Assembly (NCBI RefSeq): GCF_000025685.1
Contig: NC_013964.1
Location: 60,001 to 92,000, forward strand
From: Haloferax volcanii DS2
Lineage (GTDB): Archaea; Halobacteriota; Halobacteria; Halobacteriales; Haloferacaceae
Direction: 5' to 3'
DNA: 32,000 nt
The notes beneath the pieces were generated by a model. That model was not told where the DNA came from. It made no database searches and saw only the letters and a program-made list of their open reading frames with translations. Each line of letters begins with the position of its first letter. The first letter of the stretch is position 1. This document shows, in pieces, positions 14,623-32,000 of this stretch. The position numbers were made by a program, and so were the translations under genes.

Positions 14623-14644
14623 GGTGCACACCTGATTACGGTCC

Positions 14645-16700: not shown

Positions 16701-16786
16701 CGTCATCTGGGACGACAAATCGAGCGACGATTCACCGGAAAATCGCCAAACGGCCGTCGGTTCGAATAGTAGTCAACTCGTCGAGC

Positions 16787-16795
16787 AGAAAGAAA
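16787..16795 (-). terminator. Candidate oligo-U terminator tract after the aldehyde dehydrogenase gene
   Basis: The minus-strand sequence reads tttctttct about 100 nt after the stop codon. It is the first T-rich run downstream. Archaeal terminators are typically U-tracts. Confidence 0.3.
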
Positions 16796-16819
16796 CGGCG
16801 TCCGCGCTCGATTCGCGTT

Positions 16820-16894
16820 CCGGGCGTCGTCGCGGGCGTCGCGCCCGGTGTCGCGTTGGGTGTCGCTCCGGGTGCTGGGTCGGGCGTCGTCGCG
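16820..16894. repeat. About six degenerate tandem copies of a ~12-nt GC-rich unit (YYGGGYGTCGCG) in the aldehyde dehydrogenase 3' UTR
   Basis: The units are ccgggcgtcgtcgcg / ggcgtcgcg / cccggtgtcgcg / ttgggtgtcgct / ccgggtgctgg / gtcgggcgtcgtcgcg. The first and last units are near-identical. The array ends 1 nt before the stop codon at 16896-16898. Confidence 0.6.
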
Positions 16895-16895
16895 C

Positions 16896-18275
16896 TCACT
16901 CGTCGGCGGGCGCGTCCTCGACCCAGACCGTCTTCGTGTTGACGAACTCCCGAATCCCGTGCCGGGAGAGTTCGGTCCCGTAGCCCGAGTCCTTCGTCCC
17001 GCTGAACGGGACCCGCGGGTCAGACGCGACGACGTGATTGACCGCGACGTTACCCGCGGTGAGCTTCGTCGTGAGCGCCTCGCCGCGTTCGGCGTCGGCC
17101 GTCCAGACGCTCGCGCCGAGGCCGTAGGGCGTGTCGTTCGCCACGCGGACCGCCTCCGCCTCGTCTTCGACTCTGATGACGGTGGCGACGGGGCCGAACA
17201 GTTCCTCGGTCCTCGCGGGCGCGTCCTCGGGCACGTCGGTCAGCACCGTCGGCGGGTAGTAGTGGCCGGGTCGGTCCAGCGGTTCGCCGCCGAGGCGGAG
17301 CGTCGCGCCGGCCTCGACGGACGCCGTGACCTGCTCGTGGAGCGTCTCCATGAGGTCCGCCCGCGCCTGCGGCCCCACGTCGGTCTCGGGGTCGGTGGGG
17401 TCGCCGACGGTCAGTGCGCGCATCTCCTCGGTGAAGCGCTCGACGAACTCGTCGTAGACGGCCTCGTGGACGAGAAAGCGCTTCGCGGCGATACACGACT
17501 GGCCGTTGTTCTGCGTTCGCGCCCGTGCGGCCCGCTTCGCGGTCGCTTCGAGCGGCGCGTCGTCGAGGACGACGAAGGGGTCGCTCCCGCCGAGTTCGAG
17601 CACCGTCGGCTTGAGTTCGCGGCCGCTCGTCTCCGCGACGGCCCGCCCGGCGCGGGTGCTCCCCGTCAGGCTGACGCCCCGAACTCGGTCGTCTTCGATG
17701 ACGCCGGCGACGCGCTCGGCGGGAATCCGGAGCGAGGTGAACACGTCGTCGGGGTAGCCCGCCCGCTCGAAGACGGAGGCGATTGCGTCGGCGCAGCCGA
17801 AGACGTTCGGCGCGTGCTTGAGCACGGCGACGTTTCCGGCGGTGATGTGCGGGGCCGCGAACCGGAACACCTGCCAGAACGGGAAGTTCCACGGCATCAC
17901 CGCGAGCACCGGGCCGATTGGCTCGTAGGAGACGTACGTCTTCGACCCCGGCACGGTGCCGATGTGCTCGTCCTGCAGGAACTCCGACGCGTGTTCGGCG
18001 TAGTAGTCGCAGACCCACGCGCACTTTTCGACCTCGGAGACCGCCTGCTCGACGGGTTTGCCCATCTCCTCGGTCATCAGCGTCGCGTACTCCTCGCTGT
18101 GTTCGCGCAGCACGTCGGCCGCGGCCGCGAGCAGTTTCTCGCGCCGCGAAATCGGCGTCTCGCGCCACGATTCGAACCGGTCCCACGCGGCGTCCAATCG
18201 CGCGTCGACCGTCGCTTCGTCGTGTTCCTCGTGCGTCTCGATGACCTCCTCGGTCGCGGGGTTGATGGATTTCAT
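16896..18275 (-). CDS. NAD(P)-dependent aldehyde dehydrogenase of the succinate-semialdehyde dehydrogenase type
   Basis: The real start is ATG 18275 (MKSINPATEEVIETHEEH...), giving 459 aa. ALDH hallmarks are present: VLELGGSDP (catalytic Glu), NNGQSCIAAKRF (catalytic Cys) and EELFGPV. The 64-aa track leader crosses an AT-rich promoter and is not credible. Confidence 0.85.
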   Translation of the reverse strand: MKSINPATEEVIETHEEHDEATVDARLDAAWDRFESWRETPISRREKLLAAAADVLREHSEEYATLMTEEMGKPVEQAVSEVEKCAWVCDYYAEHASEFLQDEHIGTVPGSKTYVSYEPIGPVLAVMPWNFPFWQVFRFAAPHITAGNVAVLKHAPNVFGCADAIASVFERAGYPDDVFTSLRIPAERVAGVIEDDRVRGVSLTGSTRAGRAVAETSGRELKPTVLELGGSDPFVVLDDAPLEATAKRAARARTQNNGQSCIAAKRFLVHEAVYDEFVERFTEEMRALTVGDPTDPETDVGPQARADLMETLHEQVTASVEAGATLRLGGEPLDRPGHYYPPTVLTDVPEDAPARTEELFGPVATVIRVEDEAEAVRVANDTPYGLGASVWTADAERGEALTTKLTAGNVAVNHVVASDPRVPFSGTKDSGYGTELSRHGIREFVNTKTVWVEDAPADE

Positions 18276-18533
18276 GGTCGGCTCTCGGGAGCGCGGCGGT
18301 CGCTCGTCGCTCCCGCTTGGACCCACTGTCGTCCCATATGTTGATAAATGTTCCAGACACAGCAGAATACTCGGACTGTGTTCAAAACACGTCGGTGACG
18401 AACGCAGTCGAGTACGGAGCTCCCAGGCGCGTTCGAGTCTGGAACGACCGCCCTCGTCCCGACACACCCGCAGTATTCTGTATGATATTCCACACAGAAT
18501 AATTTATTAGGATTCAGTTTGGAACTTGTGTTC
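18276..18533. promoter_or_regulatory. Divergent aldehyde dehydrogenase / aminotransferase control region with two TATA-like boxes and several repeats
   Basis: For the minus-strand gene the box is ttgataaatg (18341-18350). For the plus-strand gene it is aataatttatta (18497-18508), about 26 nt before ATG 18534. The repeats are detailed in the findings. Confidence 0.55.
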
Positions 18534-19844
18534 ATGAGAGAACGGACGACGAACTCGTCGGTCGAGGCGGCGTACGACGACTACCTCATGCCGATTTGGA
18601 AATCGCTGAACGTCCCGGTCGAGCGGGCGTCCGGCTGTACCCTCGAAGACTTCGACGGCAACGAGTATCTCGACGTGTTCTCGGGCATCTCGGTGACGAA
18701 CGTCGGACACAACAACGAGGCGGTCGTCGAGGCCGCCACGGAGCAGTTGGAGGAGTTCGTCCACGGCTGTTCGTACGTCCATCCGAACCGGCCGGTGGCC
18801 GACCTCGCCGAGACCATCGCCGAGGTGACGCCGGGCGACCTCCAGAAGACCTTCTTCTGTAACTCCGGCACCGAAGCCGTCGAGGGAGCTATCAAACTCG
18901 CCCGGAAGTACACCGGCTCGAAAGAGGTCATCTCGCTGGAGATGGGCTTCCACGGCCGCACCCTCGGCAGCCTCGCGCTCACCGGCAACAGGGCCTACAA
19001 GCAGGACATGGCCCCGACCATCAACGACGTGGCTCACACCGCGCCGCCGTACGCCTACCGCTGTCCCCGCTGTGACGGCGACACCTGCGGCGCGGACTGC
19101 GCGGACGCGCTCGAACGGGTCATCGGCTCGCACACCAGCGGCGACCTCGCGGCGGTCGTCGTCGAACCCGTCATGGGCGAGGCCGGCATCGTCGTCCCCT
19201 CGGAGGCGTGGCTCAAGCGCGTCCGGGACATCGCCCACGACCACGGCGCGCTCCTCATCGCCGACGAGGTCCAGACCGGCTACGGCCGCACCGGCGAACT
19301 GTTCGCCAGCAAGCAGTTCGGCGTCGAACCGGACATCCTGACGCAGGCGAAGGGCATCGCCAACGGCCTGCCCCTCGGCGCGTTCACGGCACCCGCGGAC
19401 ATCGCGGACGCGTTCGGCTCCGGCGACCACCTCTCGACGTTCGGCGGCAACCCCGTCGCCTGCGCGGCAGCGCTGGCGACCATCGAGGAACTCCAGAACG
19501 GTATCGTCGACAACGCCTGCGAGAACGGCGAGTGGCTCTCGGCCGAACTCGCCACGCTCGAATCCGACTACGACGTGGTCGGCGAGGCCCGCGGCCTCGG
19601 GCTGATGCAGGGCATCGAACTCGTGGACCCCGAGACGACCGGCCCGCAGCACGTCGCGCCCGCCCCGGACAAGGAACTCGCGGCCGCGGTCGGCGAGCAC
19701 CTCCGCGAGGAGTCCAACGTCGTCATGGGCGTCGGCGGCTACTACAAGAACGTCATGCGCTTCCAGCCGCCGCTGACGATTTCGCAGGCGCAGCTCGGCG
19801 AGGCCGTCGACGCGCTCCGAACCGCGCTGAACGACCTGGCCTGA
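18534..19844 (+). CDS. Class III (omega-amino acid / GABA-type) pyridoxal-phosphate aminotransferase
   Basis: The track start at 18519 is TTG. I prefer ATG 18534 (MRERTTNSSVEAAYDDY...). Motifs: FFCNSGTEAVEGAIKLAR, LIADEVQTGYGRTG, TQAKGIANGLPLGA (PLP lysine context) and STFGGNP. The product is about 436 aa. Confidence 0.85.
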   Translation: MRERTTNSSVEAAYDDYLMPIWKSLNVPVERASGCTLEDFDGNEYLDVFSGISVTNVGHNNEAVVEAATEQLEEFVHGCSYVHPNRPVADLAETIAEVTPGDLQKTFFCNSGTEAVEGAIKLARKYTGSKEVISLEMGFHGRTLGSLALTGNRAYKQDMAPTINDVAHTAPPYAYRCPRCDGDTCGADCADALERVIGSHTSGDLAAVVVEPVMGEAGIVVPSEAWLKRVRDIAHDHGALLIADEVQTGYGRTGELFASKQFGVEPDILTQAKGIANGLPLGAFTAPADIADAFGSGDHLSTFGGNPVACAAALATIEELQNGIVDNACENGEWLSAELATLESDYDVVGEARGLGLMQGIELVDPETTGPQHVAPAPDKELAAAVGEHLREESNVVMGVGGYYKNVMRFQPPLTISQAQLGEAVDALRTALNDLA

Positions 19845-20011
19845 GCCGCCTGCGTCGACCGCGACACCCGCTCACGGCTTCATTTCGATTGCTCTCGGTC
19901 TCGCGGCTTACGGTGGTGATAGTTGTGGATTGGTGCCGGGGATAGCCCCCGCTGAAACGGCCGCCTCCGCCGGAAGCGCGTCTCGACCGTCGGTCTGGGT
20001 CAGGGTGTGTC

Positions 20012-21061
20012 TTACTCGTCGACTTTCACCATGACCTTGATTGCCTCGCGGTCGTCCATCGCCTGATAGCCTTCCGGGACGCCGTCGAGGTCGACGGTCT
20101 TCGTCAGGATGGGCGACGGGTCGAGGGTGCCCTGCAGCACGTCGTCCATGAGTTCCTCGATGTAGTTCCGGACGGGTGCGCCGCCGGCGGAGAACGAGAG
20201 GTTCTTGTAGAATATCGGCTGGAGGAAGTCGGCGGACTCGACGTGCGGGACGCCCACGGCGCCGATGGAGCCGCCGGGACGGGCGACCTGCGCGGCGGTT
20301 TCGAGCGCCGACGCCGCGCCGACGCATTCGAGGACGTGGTTCGCGCCGCCGTGGGTGAGTTCGAGGACTTCCTCGACGGCCTCTTGGCCGCGGGACGAGA
20401 CGGTGTCGGTCGCGCCGAGTTCGCGGGCGACTTCCAAGCGGTCCTCGTGGTGGCCGACCGCGATGATTCGCTCTGCGCCGATGCGCTTCGCCGCGAGGAC
20501 GCCGCACAGTCCGACCGCGCCGTCGCCGATGACGACCGCGGTGTCGCCGGCTTCGAGGTCCGCCAAGACGGCGGCGTGGTGGCCGGTCGACATCACGTCC
20601 GTGAGCGGGAGGAGCGATTTGAGCGTCTCTTCGTCGTCGGCGTACCGCTCGGGGACCCGAACGACCGTGCCGTCGGCGTGGAGGACGCGGACCTTCTCGG
20701 CCTGTGCGCCGCCGGTCTCGTCGCCGTGCGGACCGAAGAACCCGCCGTCTACACACGCGGTGTGGATGCCTTTGCGACAGAACTCGCACTCCCCGCAGCT
20801 GTACGCGAACGGGACGAGCACGCGGTCGCCCGGTTGGACGCTCGTGACGTCCTCACCGACTTCCTCGACGATACCCATCGGCTCGTGGCCGACCCCGGAG
20901 CCCTCCTCGTGTTCCTCGTGACCGCGGTAGAACCAGAGGTCGGACCCGCAGATGGCGGTGTGAGTGACGCGGATGACCGCGTCGGTCGGTTGTTGAAGCT
21001 CCGGTTCTGGTTTTTCCTCGATGCGAACGTCGCCCGGACCGCGATAGACTGCTGATTTCAC
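20012..21061 (-). CDS. Zn-dependent medium-chain alcohol (formaldehyde-like) dehydrogenase
   Basis: Motifs: ICGSDLWFYRG, GHEPMGIVEEVG, structural-zinc CGECEFCRKGIHTAC, and a Rossmann VIGDGAVGL. I prefer GTG 21061 (VKSAVYRGPGDVRIEE..., 349 aa). The longer track form (to 21181) adds a non-acidic leader that spans a TATA-like box (ctatatgaatag, 21103-21114). Confidence 0.8.
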   Translation of the reverse strand: MKSAVYRGPGDVRIEEKPEPELQQPTDAVIRVTHTAICGSDLWFYRGHEEHEEGSGVGHEPMGIVEEVGEDVTSVQPGDRVLVPFAYSCGECEFCRKGIHTACVDGGFFGPHGDETGGAQAEKVRVLHADGTVVRVPERYADDEETLKSLLPLTDVMSTGHHAAVLADLEAGDTAVVIGDGAVGLCGVLAAKRIGAERIIAVGHHEDRLEVARELGATDTVSSRGQEAVEEVLELTHGGANHVLECVGAASALETAAQVARPGGSIGAVGVPHVESADFLQPIFYKNLSFSAGGAPVRNYIEELMDDVLQGTLDPSPILTKTVDLDGVPEGYQAMDDREAIKVMVKVDE

Positions 21062-21214
21062 GTACGCTGTGAGGTACGGACCTTGCGGGCATAGATGCGA
21101 TGCTATATGAATAGTCCATTTAACTGCGGCCGGGCGGCCGTCCCGCTCGTCCACGGGGAAGCGAGCCGACCGCGTGGGCACGTGGCCCAGCGGCGGTTCA
21201 CTGCGTGGGCAGGC

Positions 21215-21886
21215 TCACTGCGTGGGCGGTTGCATCCGCGCCTGCATGCCCAGCGAGGAGGTAATCAGTTCCCGTTCGCCGCGTCGGAGGAGACTCGACA
21301 GCGACGGTTGCGAGATGCCGAGTTTGGCGGCCAGCTCCTCGGCCGTAGTCTGTCGCGGACTCTCGTAGTAGCCGCGCGAGACGGCGAGCGTCAGCGCCTC
21401 CCGCTGGCGGTCGGTGAGGCTGTCCGTCGGTTCGTCGGACGCGGACCCCTCCGACGCGATGGACACGAGGTCCAGCGAGATGCCGTGGGCCTCACAGCTC
21501 TCTCGGAACTCGTTGAACCCCTCGTACTCCTTGAACACTTTCGTCTCGTGCCAGCCGTCGGCGGTGACGACCGTCGGTTCGACCTGTGCGCCCCCGAAGT
21601 CCGGCTCGAACGCCTTCGAGACCGACTCCGCCAGTTCGACGGTGAGCTTGTAGACGCCCTTGTCGGCGGTCTCTCCGATTGCGTCGGCCGCGACGACCTC
21701 GTCGCGCGTCAGGAGGTCAGCCTTAGTGACGCCGTCTTCCCGCTCGAACTGCACGGTGAATATCTGCACGTCCGGTTGCAGACAGAGTGCGTGAACGCAC
21801 TCGACCTCGTCCGGCCGTAGCGCGGTCGGAATGCTGACCAGCGGAAGCGAAGTCGACCGAAGAACGAACTCCGTGGTGATAGCCAT
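21215..21886 (-). CDS. HTH_10 (bacterio-opsin-activator C-terminal type) transcription regulator
   Basis: 223 aa. The C-terminal LTDRQREALTLAVSRGYYESPRQTTAEELAAKLGISQPSLSSLLRRGERELI is the haloarchaeal HTH_10 signature. The N-terminal part resembles the Bat-associated sensor domain. Confidence 0.85.
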   Translation of the reverse strand: MAITTEFVLRSTSLPLVSIPTALRPDEVECVHALCLQPDVQIFTVQFEREDGVTKADLLTRDEVVAADAIGETADKGVYKLTVELAESVSKAFEPDFGGAQVEPTVVTADGWHETKVFKEYEGFNEFRESCEAHGISLDLVSIASEGSASDEPTDSLTDRQREALTLAVSRGYYESPRQTTAEELAAKLGISQPSLSSLLRRGERELITSSLGMQARMQPPTQ

Positions 21887-21960: not shown

Positions 21961-22491
21961 TCAGGGGCGGTCCAGCTCTTTGTCCCACGCCTTCCACGTC
22001 TTCAGAAGCGGGATGATGGTGTAGTCGTCGACGATTTCCTCGCCGTCGAAGAGGTCCCAGACGTACTCTTTCAAGGTGTTCAGGTCGGTGTGCCACGCGC
22101 TAAATACGAGGTCGTACTCGCCGAGACAGGAACTCGTGTTGTAGACGAGTCCCTCGTCGATGAGCATCGTGATGAACTCGGTCCGCACCTCGGAGGAGAC
22201 GTGCTGGTCGAACGAGACGAGTATCTGCGCGTCGGCGAGGTCGGCCTCCTGGAGGACGATGACCGCGAGGATTTCGAGCACGTCGCTCTCTTGAAGCTTC
22301 TCGCGGCGGCGACGGACCGCGGTCCGGGAGAGTCCGACGCGCTCGGCGAGTTCGGTGTCTGAGATGCGGCCGTTCTCGTTGAGCGCGCGGAATATCTCGT
22401 AGTCGTGCTCGTCGAGGTAGTTTTCGAGGACCGCCTCCGGCGTGTTCGGGTCGGGCGGCGCGTCGGCGGACGTGAGGTCGGGGTTTTCCAT
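21961..22491 (-). CDS. Lrp/AsnC-family transcription regulator
   Basis: I prefer ATG 22491 (MENPDLTSADAPP...), giving 176 aa. The wHTH reads DYEIFRALNENGRISDTELAERVGLSRTAVRRRREKLQESDVL, followed by a RAM-like C-terminal domain. A TATA-like tttcaaat box (complement of 22515-22522) lies about 24 nt upstream. Confidence 0.8.
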   Translation of the reverse strand: MENPDLTSADAPPDPNTPEAVLENYLDEHDYEIFRALNENGRISDTELAERVGLSRTAVRRRREKLQESDVLEILAVIVLQEADLADAQILVSFDQHVSSEVRTEFITMLIDEGLVYNTSSCLGEYDLVFSAWHTDLNTLKEYVWDLFDGEEIVDDYTIIPLLKTWKAWDKELDRP

Positions 22492-22628
22492 GGTCGGCTG
22501 TATTGGTGGGGTTCGATTTGAAACTGTGGGTGGCGTAAACGAACCAAAACGATACAATAGTTGTGTCGAATTGGCTAGTTCACGGCTTGCGGTGGGTTGG
22601 TGGTGGGTAGCGAGCGATTCGGTCGTGG

Positions 22629-22651
22629 GACGCCGCGCGAAACGCGGCGTC
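22629..22651 (-). terminator. Perfect 9-bp stem / 5-nt loop hairpin about 50 nt downstream of the DUF917 operon stop
   Basis: The hairpin reads gacgccgcg-cgaaa-cgcggcgtc. No adjacent U-tract is present, so its function as a terminator is uncertain. Confidence 0.3.
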
Positions 22652-22703
22652 GAGGGCGATTCAGCGGCGAGGCCACCGGCGCGACCGAAGCGTCACCACC
22701 GGG

Positions 22704-23819
22704 TCACCACCCCGTCTCGTCCCGCGGTAGCGGGTCGTACGGAACCTCGTACCCGAACGCTTCGGGGCCGATGACGTCGAGCGCTTCGGGCGTCGTGAGC
22801 AGTTCGGGCGCGGGCACGCCGAGGACGCGGACGCGCTGGCCGTACCGCAGGGCGTCGGTCGTGACCGGCGCGCCGGTGTCGGTGTCGACGAGGCAGATGA
22901 GGTCGGGCACGGTCGTCCGGAGGTCGCCGTCGTCGTCCCGCGCGACGAGGAACTCGTTTTGGAACTCGATTTCGAGGGTCGCGTCCTCGTCCAACCCGGC
23001 GAGCGTGACGCTCCCGAGGGCGAAGCCGTCGCGGTTGCGGCGGTGCACGTCCACGATTTTCCCGGCGAACAGCTCCTCGCCGCCGAGCAGTTCGCGGCCG
23101 GCGTCGACCGGGTCGGTGCCGGCGTCGCGGGCGCGTTCGACCGCCCGCCCGAGTTCGGTGGCGAGCGAGACGGTGTGGGGAACCGCGTACTCCGAGACGA
23201 ACGCGCCGGTCATGAGCGGGAAGGCGTAGCCCGAGCGGCCGCCCATCTGGACGGTGATGGCCCGCGCGAGGTCTTCGAGGCGCTTGGCCGAGTCGATGTC
23301 CCGGTAGACGACCTGATTGCCGCGCTCGTCGGTCGTCGCCGCGTAGTTCACGGGCGTGCCGTAGATGAAGAACGTGTCCATCTGGAGTTCGGGGAACGCC
23401 CGGCCCATGCCGTCGGCGTCGACCACGGGGAGGTCGGTCATCGCCGCCACGCACAGCGGGGCCATGCTGTTCGCGCCGCCGATTTCGCCGGGGATGAGCG
23501 CGTCGACCGTCTCGCCGGAAAGCTCCTCGATGGCCCGAAGCGACTGCACTTCCTCGTCGCCGCCGGCGAACTTCTCGACGCTGATGGTGGGCGCGCCCAT
23601 CCCGCCGACGCTCGCCACGGTGGCGTCGGGCGGCAGGTCCCGCGGGTCGACCAGTTCGACCGAGTCGGGGTAGGCGTCGTCTTCGAGGAGCGTCTGGAGT
23701 CGCAGGCGGCCGAGGCGGGGGTTGCCGCCGCCGCCGGTGCCGAGGATGCCCGCGCCGGTGCCGAGCGCTTCGAGGTCGTCGAGCGTTATCTCCGTCAGGT
23801 GTGGGATGTCGAAACTCAT
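22704..23819 (-). CDS. DUF917-family protein, paralog a (last gene of the operon)
   Basis: The real start is ATG 23819 (MSFDIPHLTEITLDDLEALGTGAGILGTGGGGNP...), which forms an ATGA overlap with paralog b. The product is 371 aa. Shared blocks: VDADGMGRAFPELQ, GKIVDVHRR, FQNEFL, PDLICL, RYGQRVRVLG. The long track leader (to 24389) is spurious. Confidence 0.8.
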   Translation of the reverse strand: MSFDIPHLTEITLDDLEALGTGAGILGTGGGGNPRLGRLRLQTLLEDDAYPDSVELVDPRDLPPDATVASVGGMGAPTISVEKFAGGDEEVQSLRAIEELSGETVDALIPGEIGGANSMAPLCVAAMTDLPVVDADGMGRAFPELQMDTFFIYGTPVNYAATTDERGNQVVYRDIDSAKRLEDLARAITVQMGGRSGYAFPLMTGAFVSEYAVPHTVSLATELGRAVERARDAGTDPVDAGRELLGGEELFAGKIVDVHRRNRDGFALGSVTLAGLDEDATLEIEFQNEFLVARDDDGDLRTTVPDLICLVDTDTGAPVTTDALRYGQRVRVLGVPAPELLTTPEALDVIGPEAFGYEVPYDPLPRDETGW

Positions 23820-24904
23820 GGGTGGTCCGCGAGTGGTTCGTAGGTCGCGTCGAGGCCGAACGACGCCGGCCCCCACACGTCGAGCGCGGCGGGCGTCCGC
23901 ATTATCTCGGGCGTCCGGATGCCGAGCACGCGGACTCGCGCCCCGTACCGGAGGCTCTCGGTCGGAATCGGACCGCCCGTCTCGCGGTCGAGGACGGTGA
24001 TGAGGTCGGGGACGGTCGCCACGTAGCTCCCGTCGACCGCCGCGCCGAGGTTCTCGTTTTGGAACTCGATGCGCATCGTCGAGCCCTCGTCGCCGTCGAG
24101 GCCGTCGATATCGACGTGGCCGAAGACGAACCCGCGCTCGGTGCGGCGCTGGACGTCCACGATTTTCCCCTCGAACAGCGACCGCGCCTCGCCGTAAATC
24201 GACTCGCGGGTCACCTCGCGGATGGCGCTCATCGCGTCGTCCTCGGCGAGTCGGAGCGCGCGGCCGAGGTTCTTCGCGAGCGACATCGTGCCGGGGATGG
24301 CGGTCTCGTTGACCTGCGTCCCGGTCATCGGGTAGTCCGAGACGTAGGCGACGCCGCCCATCCTGACGGTGACGCCGCGGGCCAGCCACTCCAACTGGTC
24401 GTTGTCCTCAGTCTCGATGAGGCAGGTGCTCCCCTGCTCGTCGCTGACGGCCGCGGGCGTCCCGCTGACGCCGTAGATGTTGAACGTCTCGTGTTGGAGT
24501 TCGGGGAAGGCGCGTCCCATGCCGTCGGCGTCCACCACGGGGAGCCCGCGGCGGGCCGCGACGGCGAAGGGGAACGTCGAGTTGATGCCGCCGCACTCGA
24601 TCGGCATCGTCGCGTCGGCGGTCTTCCCGAGTTCGCGCTCGATGCGCTCCATCGAGGCGACGGCCTCCCGCCCGCTCGGGAGCTTTTCGACCGAGACGGT
24701 CGGCGCGCCCATCTGGGCGGTCGGGATGACGAAGTCGTCCGCGTCCAGTTCGTCCGGGGGGAGGAGTTCGACGGGGCCGAACTCCTCGATGGCCTGCTTC
24801 GCGACGAGTTTGCCGACGTGGGGGTCGCCCCCGCCGCCGGTGCCGAGGACAGTCGCGCCGAGCGCGATGTCTTCTATCTCCTCGACGCCGATTTCGACCG
24901 TCAT
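23816..24904 (-). CDS. DUF917-family protein, paralog b
   Basis: 362 aa, MTVEIGVEEIEDIALGATVLGTGGGGDPHVG... Shared blocks: VDADGMGRAFPELQ, GKIVDVQRR, FQNENL, PDLITV, RYGARVRVLG. The ATG at 24904 shares 1 nt with the hyuA-like stop. Confidence 0.8.
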   Translation of the reverse strand: MTVEIGVEEIEDIALGATVLGTGGGGDPHVGKLVAKQAIEEFGPVELLPPDELDADDFVIPTAQMGAPTVSVEKLPSGREAVASMERIERELGKTADATMPIECGGINSTFPFAVAARRGLPVVDADGMGRAFPELQHETFNIYGVSGTPAAVSDEQGSTCLIETEDNDQLEWLARGVTVRMGGVAYVSDYPMTGTQVNETAIPGTMSLAKNLGRALRLAEDDAMSAIREVTRESIYGEARSLFEGKIVDVQRRTERGFVFGHVDIDGLDGDEGSTMRIEFQNENLGAAVDGSYVATVPDLITVLDRETGGPIPTESLRYGARVRVLGIRTPEIMRTPAALDVWGPASFGLDATYEPLADHP

Positions 24905-26448
24905 CAGTGGTCGAGCGCCCCGGCGGCCTTCACCTTGATTCGCACCGCGTTGCCGGGCAGGTACGAAAGCGGGACCTCCTCGACGTCGACGATGTCCACG
25001 GTGTCGGCGTCCGCGCCGGCGGCGAGCGCGTTGTCGGTGGCCTCGTCTTTCGCGTGCTGGATGGCCTCCTCGCGGTCCATCTCGTCGAGGCTGTAGATGC
25101 GGTCGACCTCGCCGGAGACCTGCGCGATGGCGACGCCGACGGCGTTCGCGACCTCGTAGTGGTCGGGCTTGTGGACCTCGCTCGCGCCCGCGATGTCGTC
25201 GGGGACGAGGATGCTCCCGCCGCCGACGATGACCACGGGGACCGGCTCGGCGCTCGTCTTCATGCGGTCGACCTCGCGCTCGACGCGCTCTCTGACGTAC
25301 TCGCGGGCGGCCTCGACGATTTCACCGTCGACGTCCGGCGTCTCGGAGCCGATGTCGATGGTGCCGGCGGCGACTTCGAGGTCGGTCGCGGTCAGCGTCT
25401 CCCCGCCGAAACACTTCGCCTCCTCGGTCAGTTTGTAGCCGACGCTCTGGGGGCCGACGGTGACGCCGCCGTCGGTCGAGACGATGGAGCCGCCGCCGAT
25501 GCCGATGGCGATGATGTCGGGCATGCGGAAGTTGGTCTTCACCTCGCCGATTTCGACGGCGACGCTGCTCTCGCGGGGGAAGCCCTCGGTGACCGCGCCC
25601 ACGTCGGTGGTCGTGCCGCCCACGTCGACGATGATGCCGTTTTCGACCGCGGAGAGGTACGCCGCGCCCCGGACCGAGTTCGAGGGGCCGCTGGCGACCG
25701 TGAAGATGGGGTAGCGGATGGCGTAGTCGACGCTCATCAGCGTCCCGTCGTTCTGGCCGAAGTAGAGGTTCGCGTCGATGCCGCGTTCGTTCATCGCGTC
25801 GACGAAGGCGTTCGCGGCCTCCGAGGCGACGCTCGTGAGCGCGGCGTTGAGCGCCGTCGCGTTCTCGCGTTCGAGCAGGCCCACGCTGCCGATTTCGTTC
25901 GAGACCGAGATGGGCACGTCGTCACCGACCTCCTCGCGGATGAGTTCCGCGACCCGCGTCTCGTGGTCGTCGCGGACGGGCGAGAAGACGCTCGTCACGG
26001 CGAAGGCGTCCACGTCGGAGAACTCGCGAATCTGCGCTCTGACCTGCTCCTCGTCGAGGTCGTTGAGGAGTCGGCCGTCGAACTCGTGGCCGCCGTCGAG
26101 GATGGCGACGTTGTTGCCGATGGCCGCGGCGAGGTCGTCGGGCCATTCGAGGAGCGGGCGGATGCTCTGGGTCGCGGGCGCGCCGATGCGGATGACGCCG
26201 ACCTCGTTGAGGCCGCGCCGCTCCGTGATGGCGTTCGTCGCGTGGGTCGTGCCGAGCATCACGTAGTCGAGTTCGTCCTCGGAGACGCCGCTGTCGTCGA
26301 GGACCACGTCGAGGGCGCTGAGGATGCCCGAGGTGATGTCTTCTGTCGTGGGGGTCTTCGTCTTCGCGAGGAGGTTGTCGTCGCCGTCCATGACGACGGC
26401 GTCCGTGTTGGTGCCGCCGACGTCGATTCCGATTCGGTAGTCAGTCAT
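24904..26448 (-). CDS. Hydantoinase/oxoprolinase-family (HyuA-like, ASKHA fold) ATPase, short form
   Basis: 514 aa. MTDYRIGIDVGGTNTDAVV is the ASKHA phosphate-1 motif, and a second glycine-rich block reads IIVDVGGTTTDVG. The overall layout is Hydant_A_N plus Hydantoinase_A. An 8-nt overlap joins it to upstream paralog c (26441-26448). Confidence 0.85.
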   Translation of the reverse strand: MTDYRIGIDVGGTNTDAVVMDGDDNLLAKTKTPTTEDITSGILSALDVVLDDSGVSEDELDYVMLGTTHATNAITERRGLNEVGVIRIGAPATQSIRPLLEWPDDLAAAIGNNVAILDGGHEFDGRLLNDLDEEQVRAQIREFSDVDAFAVTSVFSPVRDDHETRVAELIREEVGDDVPISVSNEIGSVGLLERENATALNAALTSVASEAANAFVDAMNERGIDANLYFGQNDGTLMSVDYAIRYPIFTVASGPSNSVRGAAYLSAVENGIIVDVGGTTTDVGAVTEGFPRESSVAVEIGEVKTNFRMPDIIAIGIGGGSIVSTDGGVTVGPQSVGYKLTEEAKCFGGETLTATDLEVAAGTIDIGSETPDVDGEIVEAAREYVRERVEREVDRMKTSAEPVPVVIVGGGSILVPDDIAGASEVHKPDHYEVANAVGVAIAQVSGEVDRIYSLDEMDREEAIQHAKDEATDNALAAGADADTVDIVDVEEVPLSYLPGNAVRIKVKAAGALDH

Positions 26449-27532
26449 GTCTGGGTTGCTGGAGAGTTTCGATTGGTTCGTAGTCGATGCTGTAATCGAA
26501 GTACGCCGGGCCGACGAGGTCGAGTCCCTCCTCGGTCCGCCACTTCGGTGAACACGGCATGCCGATGACCCGCACCCGGTGGCCGTAGGCGAGTCGCTCG
26601 GTGGTGACGGGGTCGCCCGTCTCGGCGTCCACGACCGTAATCAGGTCGGGGGTGCTCGCCACGACGCCGCGCTCTGAGTCGCGGGCGACGAGGTTCTCGT
26701 TTTGGAAGTCGAGGGCGAACGTCCGGCCCTCGCAGTCGTCGATGCCGTCGAGGGTCGCCTCACCGACGGCGAAGCCGCCTTCGGTCCGGCGCTCCACGTC
26801 GGTTATCTTCCCCGCGAACAGTTCGTAGCCGTCGGTGAGGTCGAGGACCGCCTCGACGGGGTCCTGCGAGCGGTGCTTGGCGGTGCGAATCGCCTCGCCG
26901 ATGTCGTGGGCGAGGGACATCGAGTCGAGAATCGCGTGCTCGCGGACTTCCGCGCCGGAGAGCGCGTAGGTGCCTATCATGCACGCGCCGCCCATCTCGA
27001 TGCTCGTCACGCGGGCGAACGCCTCGGCGTACTCGTTGCTGACGGTGTTCACGAGAAGCGAGTTGCCCTTCTCGTCGGCGATGCTCATCGGGGTCGCGCT
27101 GACGCCGCCCATCGTGAGCGTCACCATCTGCACCTCGGGGAACGCCCGGCCCATGCCGTCGGCGTCCACGAGGGGAAGCCCGAGCGCGGCGGCGACGGCG
27201 ATGGGGACGGTGCTGTTCAGCCCGCCCGCCTCGATGCTCATCGTCGCGTAGGCCTCCTGTCCGAGGTGCGTTTCGAGCGCCTCGAAGGCGGCCAACGCCT
27301 CGGTTCCCTTCGGCATCTTCTCGACCATCACGGTCGGCGCGCCGAGCATCGCGCTCGGGATGACGAGCGCGTCGTCGGGCACGTCTCGCGGGTCGATGAG
27401 GTCGACGGGACCGTGCTCTTCGATTGCCTGCTGTGCCATCAGCTTCCCGATGTAGGGGTCGCCCCCGCCGCCCGTCCCGAGGACGGTCGCGCCGGTGGCG
27501 AAGTCGTCGATGTTGTCTGTGGTTATCTTCAT
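26441..27532 (-). CDS. DUF917-family protein, paralog c
   Basis: The real start is ATG 27532 (MKITTDNIDDFATGATVLGTGGGGDPYIG...), which forms an ATGA overlap with the ABC ATPase stop. The product is 363 aa. Shared blocks: VDADGMGRAFPEVQ, GKITDVERR, FQNENL, PDLITV, AYGHRVRVIG. Confidence 0.8.
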   Translation of the reverse strand: MKITTDNIDDFATGATVLGTGGGGDPYIGKLMAQQAIEEHGPVDLIDPRDVPDDALVIPSAMLGAPTVMVEKMPKGTEALAAFEALETHLGQEAYATMSIEAGGLNSTVPIAVAAALGLPLVDADGMGRAFPEVQMVTLTMGGVSATPMSIADEKGNSLLVNTVSNEYAEAFARVTSIEMGGACMIGTYALSGAEVREHAILDSMSLAHDIGEAIRTAKHRSQDPVEAVLDLTDGYELFAGKITDVERRTEGGFAVGEATLDGIDDCEGRTFALDFQNENLVARDSERGVVASTPDLITVVDAETGDPVTTERLAYGHRVRVIGMPCSPKWRTEEGLDLVGPAYFDYSIDYEPIETLQQPRHD

Positions 27533-28599
27533 GGCTCTTGGTTCGATGCGACCCCCTCGTCGGCGACCGCCGCGACGGCCACCTCGGGCACGTCGTCGAA
27601 CGCGTCGGCGTACGCCTCGTCGTAGATGTGACACCGGACGCTGGGGCCGGCGTCGACCGCGACGAACGCCGGTTCGTCGGCCGAACACGCGTCGGTCGCG
27701 TAGGGACACCGCGTGTGGAACCGACAGCCCGTGGGCACGTCCCGCGGACTCGGAATTTCGCCCCGGAGCGGTTCGTGCCGCGGCTTGTACGCCTCTTCCT
27801 CGTCGGTCGTGACGGGAATCGCGGACAGAAGCGCCCGGGAGTAGGGGTGTCGCGGCCGCTGGAAGACCTCCTGCGTGGGGCCGCGCTCCTGAATCTCACC
27901 GAGATACATCACGGCCGTCTCGTCGGCGAAGTTGCGGACCAGAGAGAGGTCGTGGGTGATGAACAGGTAGGTGAGCCCGAACTCCGCCTGTAAGTCCTCG
28001 AGGAGCGCGATAATCTTCGCCTGCACGCTCACGTCGAGGGCGCTCGTCGGCTCGTCGAGCAAGAGCAGTTCCGGCTCGACCGCGAGCGCGCGGGCGATGT
28101 TCACCCGCTGTTTCTGCCCGCCGGAGAGTTCGTGGGGGTACTTGTTCCAGTACTCGTCGTTCAACTCGACGCGTTCGAGCAGGTCGACCACGCGCTCCCG
28201 GAGGTCGGACGTCGCCACGCCGCGGGCCTTCAGCGGGACCGCGAGCGACTTGCCGATAGTCCGCCGTGGGTTCAGACTCGACGTGGGGTCCTGAAACACC
28301 ATCTGGACGCGCGACCGGAGGCGAGCCAGTTGCTCGTCGGCCGCGTTCGTGATGTCCTCGCCGTCGAACCTGACGGTCCCGCCGGTCGCGCCGGTCAGGC
28401 CGATAATCGTCCGAGCGACGGTGCTTTTGCCGGAGCCGGACTCGCCGATGAGCGCGAGGGTCTCCCCGCGCTCGATGTCGAACGAGACGCCGTCGACCGC
28501 TTTCACGTAATCGGACGTGCGCTTGATGATGCCGCTTTTGACGGGGAAGTACTTCTCGAGATCGTCGACGTCGAGCAGGGGTTCGGACACGTCAGTCAC
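27529..28599 (-). CDS. ABC transporter ATP-binding protein, DppF/OppF type
   Basis: 356 aa. Motifs: Walker A GESGSGKST, signature LSGGQKQR, Walker B LLLLDEPTSALD, and an oligopeptide-type C-terminal domain with GCRFHTRCPYATDAC...C. The start is GTG 28599 (8-nt overlap with the upstream gene). The GTG three codons downstream is an alternative. Confidence 0.88.
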   Translation of the reverse strand: MTDVSEPLLDVDDLEKYFPVKSGIIKRTSDYVKAVDGVSFDIERGETLALIGESGSGKSTVARTIIGLTGATGGTVRFDGEDITNAADEQLARLRSRVQMVFQDPTSSLNPRRTIGKSLAVPLKARGVATSDLRERVVDLLERVELNDEYWNKYPHELSGGQKQRVNIARALAVEPELLLLDEPTSALDVSVQAKIIALLEDLQAEFGLTYLFITHDLSLVRNFADETAVMYLGEIQERGPTQEVFQRPRHPYSRALLSAIPVTTDEEEAYKPRHEPLRGEIPSPRDVPTGCRFHTRCPYATDACSADEPAFVAVDAGPSVRCHIYDEAYADAFDDVPEVAVAAVADEGVASNQEP

Positions 28600-29704
28600 C
28601 CCCCGTCTGCTTGCCCGGTCGCCGGGTCATGTGGCTCCGGGTCTCTTCGACGGTCGGCCGCTCGGACGCCGGGACGACCTCGTCGTAGAGGACGCACTCG
28701 ACGCCGGTCTGCGGGCCGCGCTCGTACATCTCCGGGCGGGCCTCCTCGCACTCGGCGGTGGCGTAGGGACACCGCGGCGCGAACCGACAGCCCGGCGGCG
28801 GGTCGAGATACTCGGGAATCGAGCCGTCGATGCCGGTCGCCATCTCGTCGCCCGTCAGGCGCGGAATCGACGCGATGAGCCCCTGCGTGTAGGGGTGTTT
28901 CGGGTTCTCGAACAGCTCGTCTGTCGGCGCGGTCTCGACGATGCGGCCGCCGTACATGACGTACACGCGGTCGCTCACCTGTCGAGCGACGCCGAGGTTG
29001 TGGGTGATCATCAGGACGCTCAGGTCGTGGTTCTCGATGAGATCCTTCAGCAGGTCGAGAATCTGGTCGTGAATCGTCACGTCCAGCGCGGTACCGATTT
29101 CGTCGGCGATGAGCAGGTCCGGCTCGTTCAGCAGGGCCTGCGCGATGAGCGCGCGCTGACGCATCCCGCCGGACAACTGCGACGGGTACGAGTCCATGAT
29201 GTTCTCGGGGTCCGGCATCTGAACCTCGCGGAGCATCTCCAAGACGCGCTCGCGCGCCTCGTCGCGCTCGCCGCTGAAGCGGCGGCGGAAGAACTCCACG
29301 ACGCCCGTGTCGCTGTCGCCGCCGAACTGCGCGGTGTCGGTGAGCTGTTCCCCGATGGTGAACGTCGGGTTCAGGCTCGACATCGGGTCTTGGAAGACGA
29401 GGCTCATCCGCTGGCCCTTGACGCGCTCGAACTCGCGGTCCGAAAGCGACAGCAGCTTCGTCCCGTCGAACGTGATGTCGCCGCTGACGCGGGCCGGCGG
29501 CTGATTCAGGAGGCGGAGGATGGACTTCATCGTCACCGACTTGCCGCAGCCGGTCTCGCCGGCGATGGTGACGACCTCGCCTTTGCCGATAGAGAGGTTG
29601 ACGCCGTCGATGACCTCCGCGAGGCCGTCGAACGACTCGAAGCCGACTTCGAGGTTCTCGACGGTCAAAAGCGGGTTCTCGGCGACCGGCTCGTCGAGTC
29701 TCAT
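28592..29704 (-). CDS. ABC transporter ATP-binding protein, DppD/OppD type
   Basis: 370 aa. Motifs: Walker A GETGCGKS, signature LSGGMRQR, Walker B LLIADEIGTALD, and a C-terminal GCRFAPRCPYATAEC...C. An ATGA overlap joins it to the permease stop (29701-29704). Confidence 0.88.
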   Translation of the reverse strand: MRLDEPVAENPLLTVENLEVGFESFDGLAEVIDGVNLSIGKGEVVTIAGETGCGKSVTMKSILRLLNQPPARVSGDITFDGTKLLSLSDREFERVKGQRMSLVFQDPMSSLNPTFTIGEQLTDTAQFGGDSDTGVVEFFRRRFSGERDEARERVLEMLREVQMPDPENIMDSYPSQLSGGMRQRALIAQALLNEPDLLIADEIGTALDVTIHDQILDLLKDLIENHDLSVLMITHNLGVARQVSDRVYVMYGGRIVETAPTDELFENPKHPYTQGLIASIPRLTGDEMATGIDGSIPEYLDPPPGCRFAPRCPYATAECEEARPEMYERGPQTGVECVLYDEVVPASERPTVEETRSHMTRRPGKQTGGD

Positions 29705-30600
29705 CGGTTCACCTCCACGTCGAACAGGTCACGGAGGCCGTCTCCGAGCATGTTGAACCCCATCACGAGGACGAAGATGGCGAGGCCGGAGAAGACGCTC
29801 ACCCACCACGAGTCGGGCAGGTACGACGTTCCTTGGCTGACCATCGTGCCGAGGCCGGGCTGGGGCGGCTGGACGCCGACGCCGATGAACGACAGGCCCG
29901 CGCCGATGAGGATGACGAAGCCCGCGTCGAGGGTCACTTTGACCAGAATCGGCGACAGCGTGTTCGGGAGAATCTCTCGAAAGAGGATGTGCGGCGTGCT
30001 CGCGCCGGCGAGTTTCGCGGCCTGCACGTACTCCTCGCTGCGCTCGCTGGCGACGATGCTCTGGACGAGGCGGGCGTGCCACGTCCACCACAGCGCCGCG
30101 ATGGCTATCATCGCGTTCGTCAGCGTCGGCTCCAAGGCCGATGTGATTGCCAACGCCATCACGAGCGGCGGTAAGGCGAGCGCCGTGTCGGTCGCCCGCA
30201 TGATAATCGTCTCGGTCCAGCCGCCGTAGTAGCCGGCGACGAGGCCGAGCAGCACGCCCACGGGGACGCCGAAGCCGAGGACGACGGCCACGAGCATGAG
30301 CGACAGCCGGTAGCCGAAGAGGATGCGCGAGAGCACGTCGCGGCCGACGTGGTCGGTCCCCAGCGGGTGGTCGACGCTCGGCGGCTGAAGCGTGTTCGAG
30401 AAGTCGGTGAACTTCCCGGCGTGTTCGGGGTACGGCGCGACGACGGGCGCGAAGACGGCGAGCAGGACGATGGCGATGATGATGCCGAGACCGACGACGC
30501 TCATCGGCCTGCTGGTAAAGCGCTTCCACGACCGTTGCCAGAGTTCGCGGCGCTCGGCCGAGACGACCCGGTCGAGGACGCTCGTCGACTCGGCGCTCAT
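29701..30600 (-). CDS. ABC transporter permease, DppC/OppC type
   Basis: The real start is ATG 30600 (MSAESTSVLDRVV...), giving 299 aa. Hydrophobic helices are present along with the BPD_transp_1 EAA-type loop (YVQAAKLAGASTPHILFREILPN). It forms an ATGA overlap with the upstream permease. Confidence 0.88.
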   Translation of the reverse strand: MSAESTSVLDRVVSAERRELWQRSWKRFTSRPMSVVGLGIIIAIVLLAVFAPVVAPYPEHAGKFTDFSNTLQPPSVDHPLGTDHVGRDVLSRILFGYRLSLMLVAVVLGFGVPVGVLLGLVAGYYGGWTETIIMRATDTALALPPLVMALAITSALEPTLTNAMIAIAALWWTWHARLVQSIVASERSEEYVQAAKLAGASTPHILFREILPNTLSPILVKVTLDAGFVILIGAGLSFIGVGVQPPQPGLGTMVSQGTSYLPDSWWVSVFSGLAIFVLVMGFNMLGDGLRDLFDVEVNR

Positions 30601-31628
30601 GTCGCCTCCTCCATCGCCAGTCTGATGCGCGGGTCGACGCGACCCAACAGCACGTCGACGAGGAAGTTGATGCTCACGAACGCGACGCCGATGGTCATCG
30701 TGACGCCGACGACGGCGTTGAAGTCGTTGTTCAGCACCGCGGTGACGCCGTAGGACGCGAGGCCGGGCCACGAGTAGACGAGTTCGATGAGGAACGCGTT
30801 GCCCAGAAGCGAGGCGTACAACAGCCCCAGAATCGTGAGCGTCGGGATGAACGCGTTCTTGAGCGTGTACTTGTACGTGACGAGCCACGAGGGGAGGCCG
30901 AAGCCGCGTTCGGCCTCGACGTAGTCTTGGTCTTTCACGTCAATCATGCTCGACCGGGTGATGCGCATCACCTGTCCGATGCCGGCGAGCGAGAGCGCGA
31001 GCGCCGGGAGGATGATGTGCGCCCACGCGTCGACGTGGGCCGCGAGGTTCCCCGACAGCAGGGTGTCCACGAGCAGGAAGCCCGTGAACCGCGAGACGCC
31101 CGAGCCGAACTCCGAGCCGAGCCGCCCCGTGATGGGGAGCCATTCGAGCAGGTAGCCGAATATCAGCTGGAACATGATTGCGACGAAGAAGCCGGGCACG
31201 CTCACGCTGAAGAACGCGACGAGCCGCGTCGCGTTGTCGGCGAGCCCGTCTTTGTTCTGCGCGGCGATGACGCCCAGCGGGATGCCGATGACGACGGTGA
31301 GGAACATCGACACCGTGATGAGTTCGAGCGTCGCCGGCAGGTAGTAGACGATGTCGGTGCTGACCGCGCGCTTCGTTTCGAGGCTCGTCCCGAGGTCTCC
31401 GACGAGCAGGCCCCGCATGTAGTCGAGGTACTGCAACGGAATCGGCTTGTTCAGGCCCATCTCGGCGGCGAGCGCCTGCACCTGCTCTTCGGACGCGAGC
31501 GCGCCGAGGGCCATTCGCGCGGGGTTCCCGGGGAGCACTCGTGACGTGGTGAAGATGATTATCGACAGGCCGATGAGACTCACGAGGATGCCCGCGAGCC
31601 GGCGCACGAGATACTGCCAGTACTTCAT
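30597..31628 (-). CDS. ABC transporter permease, DppB/OppB type
   Basis: The real start is ATG 31628 (MKYWQYLVRRLAGILVSLIGLSIIIF, a canonical DppB/OppB N-terminus), giving 343 aa. An ATGA overlap joins it to the SBP stop (31625-31628). Confidence 0.88.
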   Translation of the reverse strand: MKYWQYLVRRLAGILVSLIGLSIIIFTTSRVLPGNPARMALGALASEEQVQALAAEMGLNKPIPLQYLDYMRGLLVGDLGTSLETKRAVSTDIVYYLPATLELITVSMFLTVVIGIPLGVIAAQNKDGLADNATRLVAFFSVSVPGFFVAIMFQLIFGYLLEWLPITGRLGSEFGSGVSRFTGFLLVDTLLSGNLAAHVDAWAHIILPALALSLAGIGQVMRITRSSMIDVKDQDYVEAERGFGLPSWLVTYKYTLKNAFIPTLTILGLLYASLLGNAFLIELVYSWPGLASYGVTAVLNNDFNAVVGVTMTIGVAFVSINFLVDVLLGRVDPRIRLAMEEAT

Positions 31629-32000
31629 TCTTGGTAGATGTCGGGGAACCAGTAGTCGAAGCTCATCGACGGCCGGAAGGTGTAGCCCGCCACGTCGGCG
31701 GCGAAGGCGTGTTTCTTCGACTGGACGAAGATGAACAGGTCGGGGTACTGGTTCGCGATGCGTTCTTGCACCTCGGCGTACAGTTCGGCGCGGGCGTCGG
31801 CGTCGACCGTCGAGCGCGCCTCGTCGATGAGGGAATCGACGTTCTCGTCTTCGAGGTGTTCCATGCTCATCCACGTCGAGGCGGCCTCGGAGTGGTACTG
31901 GTTGTAGAACACCGTGTCGGGCGAGGGGTACACCGGCCCGTAGAACACCTGATTGATGTGGGGCGTGTCCTCGACGCTCGTGGCGAGTTCCGTCATCGTC
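31625..32000 (-). CDS. ABC substrate-binding protein, family 5 (peptide/opine/nickel type), C-terminal ~125 codons only
   Basis: The frame stays open to the window edge, and the M at 31996 in the track is internal. The sequence ...DARAELYAEVQERIANQYPDLFIFVQSKKHAFAADVAGYTFRPSMSFDYWFPDIYQE is a typical SBP_bac_5 C-terminus. Confidence 0.75.
   Translation of the reverse strand, partial: TMTELATSVEDTPHINQVFYGPVYPSPDTVFYNQYHSEAASTWMSMEHLEDENVDSLIDEARSTVDADARAELYAEVQERIANQYPDLFIFVQSKKHAFAADVAGYTFRPSMSFDYWFPDIYQE

Follow-up and report, generated by a model that had tools for sequence, protein, structure and literature searches.

Enzymes of the HyuA/HyuB type, among them N-methylhydantoinase (EC 3.5.2.14), the 5-substituted hydantoinase of Pseudomonas sp. 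NS671, 5-oxoprolinase (OplAB), caprolactamase (CapAB), and the acetone and acetophenone carboxylases, are the closest characterized systems to a gene cluster found on Haloferax volcanii DS2 contig NC_013964.1. The cluster occupies positions 22704 to 32000, on the minus strand, of the stretch analyzed here (the window; 32,000 nucleotides, contig positions 60,001 to 92,000) and encodes a peptide-type ATP-binding cassette (ABC) importer, a short HyuA-type ATPase of 514 amino acids (aa), and three DUF917 proteins. Like the HyuA/HyuB enzymes, it has a HyuA-type ASKHA ATPase, represented by the N-terminal 365 residues of the short HyuA, whose gene has a tightly coupled neighbor, often in a hyu-like cluster with a permease, a racemase, and a CN_hydrolase. 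It differs in that the partner is DUF917 and no HyuB is present, and the ATPase is ~170 aa shorter, lacks the Hydant_A_C domain, and ends in 150 aa of its own. Compared with the characterized systems, the operon varies the ATP-dependent hydantoinase/lactamase theme, and what is new is a nonhomologous second component. The short HyuA and DUF917 constitute a widespread but uncharacterized module, of which the Haloferax operon is one member. No characterization of the pair was found in the searchable literature, where papers mention the genes only in passing or describe DUF917 as uncharacterized. Putative H. volcanii locus tags (HVO_B0073 to HVO_B0078, counted from HVO_B0065 as the ferredoxin/thioredoxin-domain gene) gave no match there.

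Three further systems are comparable. The thiohydantoin and S-methyl thiohydantoin desulfurases (NF058529 and NF058532), which are enzymes of ergothioneine catabolism, belong to the same two-domain fold family (PF06032 and PF20906), and the structure predicted for a Haloferax DUF917 protein matches the only solved member (2o3i). However, the Haloferax proteins are not equivalogs of the desulfurases by score, and here three subtypes are coupled to an ATPase and an importer. The same pair with a dedicated importer is found in a Firmicute triad of cytosine/NCS1 permease, DUF917, and hydantoinase (L. rhamnosus WP_005715297-99 and C. difficile CDR20291_1615-1617), in which an NCS1 permease takes the place of the Opp-type ABC importer and there is usually one DUF917 of a single subtype (c-type; see below). 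Finally, around cyclodipeptide oxidase (CDO)-like genes, genes for DUF917 (termed uncharacterized), hydantoin racemase, and dipeptide ABC transporters are enriched (Nat Commun 2024, PMC11055893). The Haloferax operon differs from these clusters, which lack a cyclodipeptide synthase (non-CDPS), in having no CDO-like genes, and the partnership with HyuA is not mentioned in the available part of that paper.

To survey the module, one genome per species was scanned for relatives of the short HyuA, and at least 583 were confirmed among the first 600 pattern matches. Counts out of 80 refer throughout to the best 80 loci of these relatives, in which neighboring families were detected by family-targeted searches of all stop-to-stop open reading frames (ORFs) and the labels were validated by Pfam. 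DUF917 was encoded within 7 kb of the short HyuA gene at 79 of the 80 loci and within 300 nucleotides (nt) at 72. The sole locus without it, even by tblastn, is a 9.6-kb contig of a Spirochaetaceae metagenome-assembled genome (MAG) (L074; the L numbers are our locus labels). The median estimated gap at HyuA-DUF917 junctions was -1 nt, and both gene orders occurred (DUF917 then HyuA 66 times, HyuA then DUF917 42 times). Such figures mark the short HyuA and DUF917 as a conserved pair of genes. The pairing spans more than ten phyla and both domains, being found in gut Firmicutes, Eggerthellaceae, soil Bacillaceae, Chloroflexota, Actinomycetota, and haloarchaea. Both proteins are unusually well conserved, with about 55 to 60% identity when Haloferax is compared with Firmicutes, Chloroflexota, or Archaeoglobus. 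In Bacillaceae and Brevibacillus (L013, L015, L019, L025, and L039), a second, divergent DUF917-HyuA pair is located behind a sigma-54 activator at the loci that also hold the main pair. Its proteins are 25 to 35% identical to those of Haloferax, with a HyuA of about 510 to 530 aa, indicating at least two lineages of HyuA-DUF917 pairing.

The short HyuA (positions 24904 to 26448, minus strand) matches Hydant_A_N (161.1 bits; E = 3e-47) and Hydantoinase_A (116.8 bits; E = 1e-33) above the Pfam gathering thresholds of 25.2 and 22.9 bits, respectively, the latter match spanning only profile positions 1 to 176 of 291. The ASKHA motifs (DVGGTN at residues 9 to 14; D275, G277, G278, T279, T281, and D282; GGGS at 409 to 412) were invariant in 42 short HyuA homologues. 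Residues 1 to 365 align with classical HyuA (29% identity to a 723-aa HyuA adjoining a HyuB). Among solved structures, N-methylhydantoinase (7hk5; E = 3e-35, query residues 5 to 364) is the best match, with the gamma subunit of acetophenone carboxylase and 5-oxoprolinase also at the top. No match to Hydant_A_C was obtained in the short HyuA at E values up to 10, and its last ~150 aa have no counterpart in classical HyuA. Against the equivalog models of CapA and ApcC, the protein scored 110 and 90 bits, below the respective cutoffs of 1000 and 1500. Its identity to an H. volcanii protein is 98%, and the family, a remarkably conserved one, shows 58 to 60% identity between Haloferax and Archaeoglobus or Desulfotomaculum/Firmicutes.

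The three DUF917 proteins, here designated DUF917c (363 aa; 26441 to 27532), DUF917b (362 aa; 23816 to 24904), and DUF917a (371 aa; 22704 to 23819), are all encoded on the minus strand, DUF917c directly upstream of HyuA. All three contain PF06032 and PF20906 (E values of 5e-53 to 8e-69 and 180 to 231 bits, against a threshold of 27 for both families; for DUF917c, 5e-60 and 8e-69, respectively). Their pairwise identities are 49% (a/b), 51% (b/c), and 45% (a/c), and each retains all of the residues that are invariant in an alignment of 53 family sequences, so that none of the three looks like a dead copy. In a neighbor-joining tree and in identity tables, the three copies fall into three separate clades, each with bacterial members. 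The c-type, which is present almost everywhere, is 50 to 61% identical to the HyuA-adjacent DUF917 proteins of bacteria and Archaeoglobus. The a-type is 44 to 54% identical to its bacterial relatives and occurs at 10 of 18 ABC-linked loci and none of the 39 NCS1-linked loci, and the nearest relatives of the b-type (53 to 59% identity) are at actinomycetotal and alphaproteobacterial loci. The copies are an assembly of old subtypes and not a recent local duplication, because each is nearer to bacterial proteins (54 to 61%) than to its sisters (45 to 51%).

An earlier model-made note on this DNA, drawn from the letters and ORFs (the original prediction), had proposed three diverged DUF917 paralogs and a HyuA-type core shorter than the ~680 aa of classical HyuA, and the domain matches and lengths above bear out both, as Pfam does for the importer families. 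It had also called the triplication unusual, which the survey contradicts: two or more DUF917 genes are present at 40 of the 80 loci, with as many as six in some Chloroflexota. Counted within 7 kb of the short HyuA gene, copies numbered zero at 1 locus, one at 39, two at 29, three at 7, four at 1, five at 2, and six at 1. The order SBP (solute-binding protein)-permease-permease-ATPase-ATPase-DUF917-HyuA, followed by further DUF917 genes, recurs in Chloroflexota (L070, L047, L040, L045, and L037). The statement that DUF917 lacks an accepted role is outdated, and the thiohydantoin-related reannotation that the same note mentioned proved real: Pfam names the family S-Me-THD_N and S-Me-THD_C, and NCBIfam has two (S-methyl)thiohydantoin desulfurase equivalog models. 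The AlphaFold model of DUF917c (predicted local distance difference test [pLDDT] score, 86.6; predicted template-modeling [pTM] score, 0.88) matched only PDB entry 2o3i, a structural-genomics entry (TM score, 0.79; E = 7e-21). Neither ergothionase nor thiourocanate hydratase genes, which we take as markers of ergothioneine breakdown, were found, either in the window or beside the Haloferax, Halorarum, and Haladaptatus units described below.

The original prediction also held that DUF917 stands in for HyuB. The called genes of the window, as had been claimed, include no Hydantoinase_B (HyuB, PF02538) gene, and there is none upstream of the SBP gene on the 98% identical Haloferax alexandrinus plasmid, where a gap of ~720 nt is followed by a divergent SMP-30 gene. 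HyuB occurs at 4 of the 80 loci, each time beside its own classical HyuA of 685 to 724 aa, and 76 loci have no HyuB within 10 kb. Profile-profile alignment of DUF917 with HyuB (hhalign) gave a probability of 0.14%, and a Foldseek search of the PDB with the DUF917c model matched no HyuB chain. With no similarity detected in sequence or fold, any replacement would be nonhomologous; in that narrower form, the proposal agrees with the pairing at 79 loci and the presence of HyuB at only 4. Haloferax mediterranei, with the operon on pHM100, does carry a classical HyuA-HyuB pair, complete on its own, on another replicon, pHM300; a genome-wide absence of HyuB is therefore unusable as an argument. The pHM300 gene, together with a Halobacteriales MAG (L089) in which a HyuB-HyuA pair is divergent from a short HyuA-DUF917 pair, would fit a scheme in which a HyuB from another part of the genome is the partner of the short HyuA and the neighboring DUF917 genes have no connection with it. 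We regard this as extremely unlikely: a full-length HyuA of its own, with Hydant_A_C, adjoins every HyuB that was seen, the C-terminal third of the classical protein is missing from the short HyuA, and the 76 loci without HyuB within 10 kb stand against the 79 with DUF917.

The reading that we favor, at about even confidence and by analogy with the characterized enzymes, is that this is a substrate-inducible catabolic operon in which the short HyuA and DUF917 would form an ATP-dependent hydrolase of an imported cyclic amide or ureide. This figure and those behind the gradings of the alternatives are subjective and total slightly below one. In the proposed sequence of events, the DppA-like ABC importer would take up a cyclic amide or ureide that is small and dipeptide-like, candidate substrates being of the hydantoin, dihydropyrimidine, lactam, or diketopiperazine type. 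The short HyuA would phosphorylate the ring carbonyl oxygen with ATP, as do the HyuA subunits of N-methylhydantoinase, 5-oxoprolinase, and caprolactamase, and DUF917 would perform the water addition and elimination at the activated carbon, the role of HyuB in the classical enzymes. A parallel may be seen in the stand-alone DUF917 enzymes, which, judging by their names, replace a thione or S-methyl leaving group on thiohydantoin. Such thio and S-methyl substrates are already activated and, again by name, should need no ATP; an oxygen-analogue substrate would give the reason why a DUF917 enzyme acquires an ATPase. The c-type would be the core partner, and the a-type, tied to ABC importers, and the b-type may extend the range of substrates or join it in mixed oligomers. 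The physical complex, the ATP-dependent activation, the hydrolytic ring opening, and the substrate class are all inferred. More tentatively, and somewhat short of an even chance, the pair in general may be a widespread two-component ATP-dependent cyclic-amide/ureide hydrolase, in which a fold unrelated to HyuB does the hydrolytic half-reaction on a phosphorylated intermediate and the a-, b-, and c-types are modules for specificity or oligomer formation that can be exchanged to match the type of importer. In a sharper version of this idea, the ABC-linked form with a- and c-types would be the long-sought diketopiperazine (cyclic dipeptide) hydrolase.

Several observations weigh against a single hydrolase built from the two proteins. 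The ATPase does not have the full-length ~680-aa HyuA architecture, being without the C-terminal third. AlphaFold modeled it poorly (pLDDT, 68.5; pTM, 0.51), and the model was excluded from the fold search. The three paralogs score 87 to 119 bits against desulfurase cutoffs of 440 and 450 bits, so the chemistry of the Haloferax DUF917 proteins may differ. HyuA-DUF917 fusion ORFs were sought in about 90 loci and none was found; DUF917 copies per HyuA vary from 1 to 6, which is odd for a complex of fixed stoichiometry; and a carbamoylase, racemase, or CDO-like gene, which could narrow the substrate, is missing from the Haloferax operon. DUF917 genes are also located directly upstream of complete classical HyuA-HyuB pairs (L039, ~17000 to 21542; L066, ~6500 to 13811). 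At L089 (5005 to 11683), the two modules, the classical HyuA having Hydant_A_C, lie near Amidohydro_1, amidase, and arginase genes. DUF917 could thus be an extra step and not a HyuB substitute; the DUF917 and classical modules can coexist and may cooperate in one pathway. To our knowledge, characterized relatives of DUF917 act without an ATPase, in which case DUF917 would have no intrinsic need of HyuA.

The same observations bear on the possibility that the two proteins are separate enzymes of one pathway, DUF917 being a stand-alone hydrolase or desulfurase and the short HyuA doing another ATP-dependent step, for example, a phosphorylation or a second ring or amide opening, with no complex formed. 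The names of the DUF917 relatives and their action without an ATPase, as far as we know of it, would suit such an arrangement, as would the occurrence of DUF917 beside complete HyuA-HyuB pairs, the varying number of copies against a single HyuA, and the presence of extra copies kilobases away from HyuA at L001, L003, L011, and L012. However, DUF917 within 7 kb at 79 of 80 loci, with stop/start overlaps in both gene orders, is a tighter association than is usual for sequential enzymes. A classical HyuA, moreover, is generally understood to need a second subunit, and we know of none (N-methylhydantoinase, oxoprolinase, caprolactamase, and acetone carboxylase included) that completes catalysis without one. 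We consider separate enzymes unlikely.

Weaker database matches of the short HyuA point in two other directions. Within the protein, Pfam reported MutL (PF13941; E = 2e-8, residues 259 to 299) and BcrAD_BadFG (E = 3e-5), which raises the possibility that the short HyuA serves DUF917 as an ATP-dependent activase, reactivase, or chaperone, on the GlmL/MutL or BcrAD/HgdC model, and is no substrate kinase; one ATPase gene per one to six DUF917 genes would fit one activator with several clients. However, the Hydant_A_N and Hydantoinase_A matches are far stronger, the top solved relatives phosphorylate their substrates, the MutL match covers only the generic ASKHA phosphate-2 motif, and DUF917 has no cofactor or radical-enzyme signature that would call for reactivation, and we judge an activase role distinctly improbable.

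In NCBIfam, MfnF and a tetrahydromethanopterin (H4MPT)-linked family are weak matches of the short HyuA. Since some enzymes with the Hydantoinase_A fold are ligase-like, the pair might work in the synthetic direction, with ATP activation of a carbonyl followed by DUF917-dependent substitution by an amine or ammonia, or by ring closure, so that an imported compound is modified for salvage or biosynthesis. The names of the DUF917 enzymes imply leaving-group substitution at an sp2 carbon, and CDO-like tailoring enzymes are present at some loci. The neighborhoods nevertheless look catabolic, with importers, regulators of the PucR, Lrp, and TetR types, CN_hydrolase, and racemase, and no biosynthetic core genes were seen in the examined loci. 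We consider synthesis very unlikely.

The neighborhoods bear on the substrate of the proposed hydrolase as well. An Asp/Glu/hydantoin racemase gene was found at 10 of the 80 loci, CN_hydrolase at 3, and PucR regulators at 12, and TetR and sigma-54 regulators also occur. In several loci (e.g., L003, L011, L012, and L052), the pair occupies the hydantoinase slot of a hyu-type cluster, the neighbors in such clusters being an NCS1 permease, racemase, CN_hydrolase, and PucR; these contexts point to hydantoin or ureide substrates. A CDO-like pair of nitroreductase and DUF6092 is found at 6 of the 80 loci and in Archaeoglobus. The DppA-like SBP, the association of the a-type with ABC importers, and the CDO-like neighbors point to dipeptide-shaped rings such as diketopiperazines. 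CDO-like pairs beside HyuA-DUF917 were noted at L001 (12928 to 15542; Archaeoglobus sulfaticallidus), L022, L027, L029, L034, L041, L056, and L066, at some of them accompanied by genes for a racemase and an MR_MLE enolase-superfamily member, which fits the non-CDPS CDO clusters of PMC11055893.

The importer has the composition of Opp/Dpp-type (PepT family) systems, with a family-5 SBP, two permeases, one of them with OppC_N, and two oligo_HPY ATPases, all encoded on the minus strand. The window holds the C-terminal 124 aa of the family-5 (DppA-like) SBP (31625 to 32000), whose gene runs past the window edge; the fragment gave weak Opp4A, GsiB, and DppA matches in NCBIfam. On the H. alexandrinus plasmid, the complete SBP has 573 aa (SBP_bac_5; E = 6e-78). 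The SBP's closest solved relative is Escherichia coli DppA (1dpe; E = 7e-37), and it is 43 to 44% identical to the SBPs of bacterial loci that also have HyuA and a- and c-type DUF917. The permeases are of the OppB/DppB type (343 aa; 30597 to 31628; BPD_transp_1, 2e-35; BPD_transp_1_N, 1e-14) and the OppC/DppC type (299 aa; 29701 to 30600; BPD_transp_1, 4e-28; OppC_N, 1e-15). The ATPases are of the OppD/DppD type (370 aa; 28592 to 29704; ABC_tran and oligo_HPY; top NCBIfam match OppD with 274 bits, under the cutoff) and the OppF/DppF type (356 aa, GTG start; 27529 to 28599; ABC_tran, 1e-37; oligo_HPY, 3e-18). As every NCBIfam match was under the equivalog cutoff, the importer is not assignable to a substrate. 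At the 80 loci, an Opp-type ABC system was present at 19 and an NCS1 permease at 39, so a transporter is usually attached to the module, in line with the link to a transporter that had been proposed.

The window has a haloarchaeal GC content of 65 to 72%, and positions 22000 to 32000 are 98% identical to the megaplasmids of H. alexandrinus and Haloferax lucentense, 96% identical to Haloferax gibbonsii, and 94% identical to H. mediterranei pHM100. From the right edge to position 22704, the nine overlapping minus-strand genes of the original prediction are present at the coordinates given above, and all eight junctions were read directly. Five are ATGA overlaps, including those that join the SBP, the two permease, and the OppD-type ATPase genes. 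The OppD- and OppF-type genes share the 8-nt GTGACTGA, and the other 8-nt overlap, ATGACTGA, joins DUF917c to HyuA; HyuA and DUF917b overlap by 1 nt (TGATG). No minus-strand terminator-like site was found inside the operon by a bacterial promoter/terminator scan, which is uninformative for a haloarchaeon, and Rfam scans of the window and the extended locus gave no match. By strand, overlaps, and the lack of an internal terminator, the nine genes are predicted to form a single translationally coupled operon.

Between DUF917a and the next gene is a spacer of 212 nt (22492 to 22703), followed by a minus-strand gene for an Lrp/AsnC-family regulator of 176 aa (21961 to 22491; HTH_AsnC-type, 2e-14). 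On its minus strand the spacer reads GTTTTGGTTCGTTTA, a T-run, and it also has a stretch richer in AT, which together suggest a separate regulator promoter; it probably holds both the operon end and the regulator's own promoter. The order SBP-permease-permease-ATPase-ATPase-DUF917-HyuA-DUF917-DUF917-Lrp/AsnC is kept in H. mediterranei pHM100, on the Halorarum halobium chromosome, and in a Haladaptatus sp., with wholly different flanks in all three, and the regulator gene has the same position in a Halobacteriales MAG, again with other flanking genes. Since the order is held while the flanking genes differ, the conserved unit comprises ten genes, including the regulator. The nine genes originally proposed are real, and their synteny extends through Haloferax, Halorarum, and Haladaptatus, but the unit runs past the window edge on one side and takes in the Lrp/AsnC gene on the other. 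A Shinella plasmid carries Lrp/AsnC, HyuA, DUF917, SBP, two permease, and two ATPase genes together; haloarchaea are thus not alone in linking the module to a peptide-type importer.

The remainder of the window holds other functions. Positions 1 to 14200 carry a cobalamin biosynthesis cluster with CobN (partial), a ChlI/ChlD-like AAA and VWA protein, a PQQ-repeat protein, CbiX fused to a 2Fe-2S thioredoxin-like ferredoxin, several TP_methylase genes, CbiG, a CbiT-like methyltransferase, and CbtA. The Rfam scan yielded no cobalamin riboswitch at the gathering score. Two minus-strand ORFs within or beside this cluster (7069 to 7746 and 13894 to 14730) have coding-like GC content at third codon positions (GC3) and no Pfam match. 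Positions 14645 to 21181 encode an Lrp/AsnC regulator (plus strand), an APC permease (minus), a succinate-semialdehyde-dehydrogenase-like Aldedh protein (minus), a class III aminotransferase (plus), and a zinc-dependent alcohol dehydrogenase (Zn-ADH; minus). The window also holds an HTH_10 regulator and a second Lrp/AsnC regulator. The omega-amino-acid genes (aminotransferase and semialdehyde dehydrogenase) were considered as a marker of a lactam pathway and rejected, the adjacency being lost in H. mediterranei, Halorarum, and Haladaptatus; the set would be a logical route after lactam opening, but its adjacency is probably coincidental. On H. alexandrinus plasmid pBNX82-1 (L005, 9313 to 10966), an IS200/IS605 element of the ISHal1 family (TnpA and TnpB) lies between the ADH and HTH_10 genes; it is absent from the window (site ~21181 to 21215).

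If the pair is one enzyme, the hydrolytic half-reaction of ring opening driven by ATP would have a second solution, not homologous to the first. One of the larger DUF families still left would then gain a function, as would an ATPase for which "N-methylhydantoinase A" is a routine misannotation. ATP-dependent hydantoinases and lactamases are of value in biocatalysis. As H. volcanii is genetically tractable, the hypothesis is directly testable there, and the three subtypes in one operon permit a clean dissection. In the organisms that carry it, the module could explain the scavenging of stable cyclic nitrogen compounds such as hydantoins, lactams, and cyclic dipeptides.

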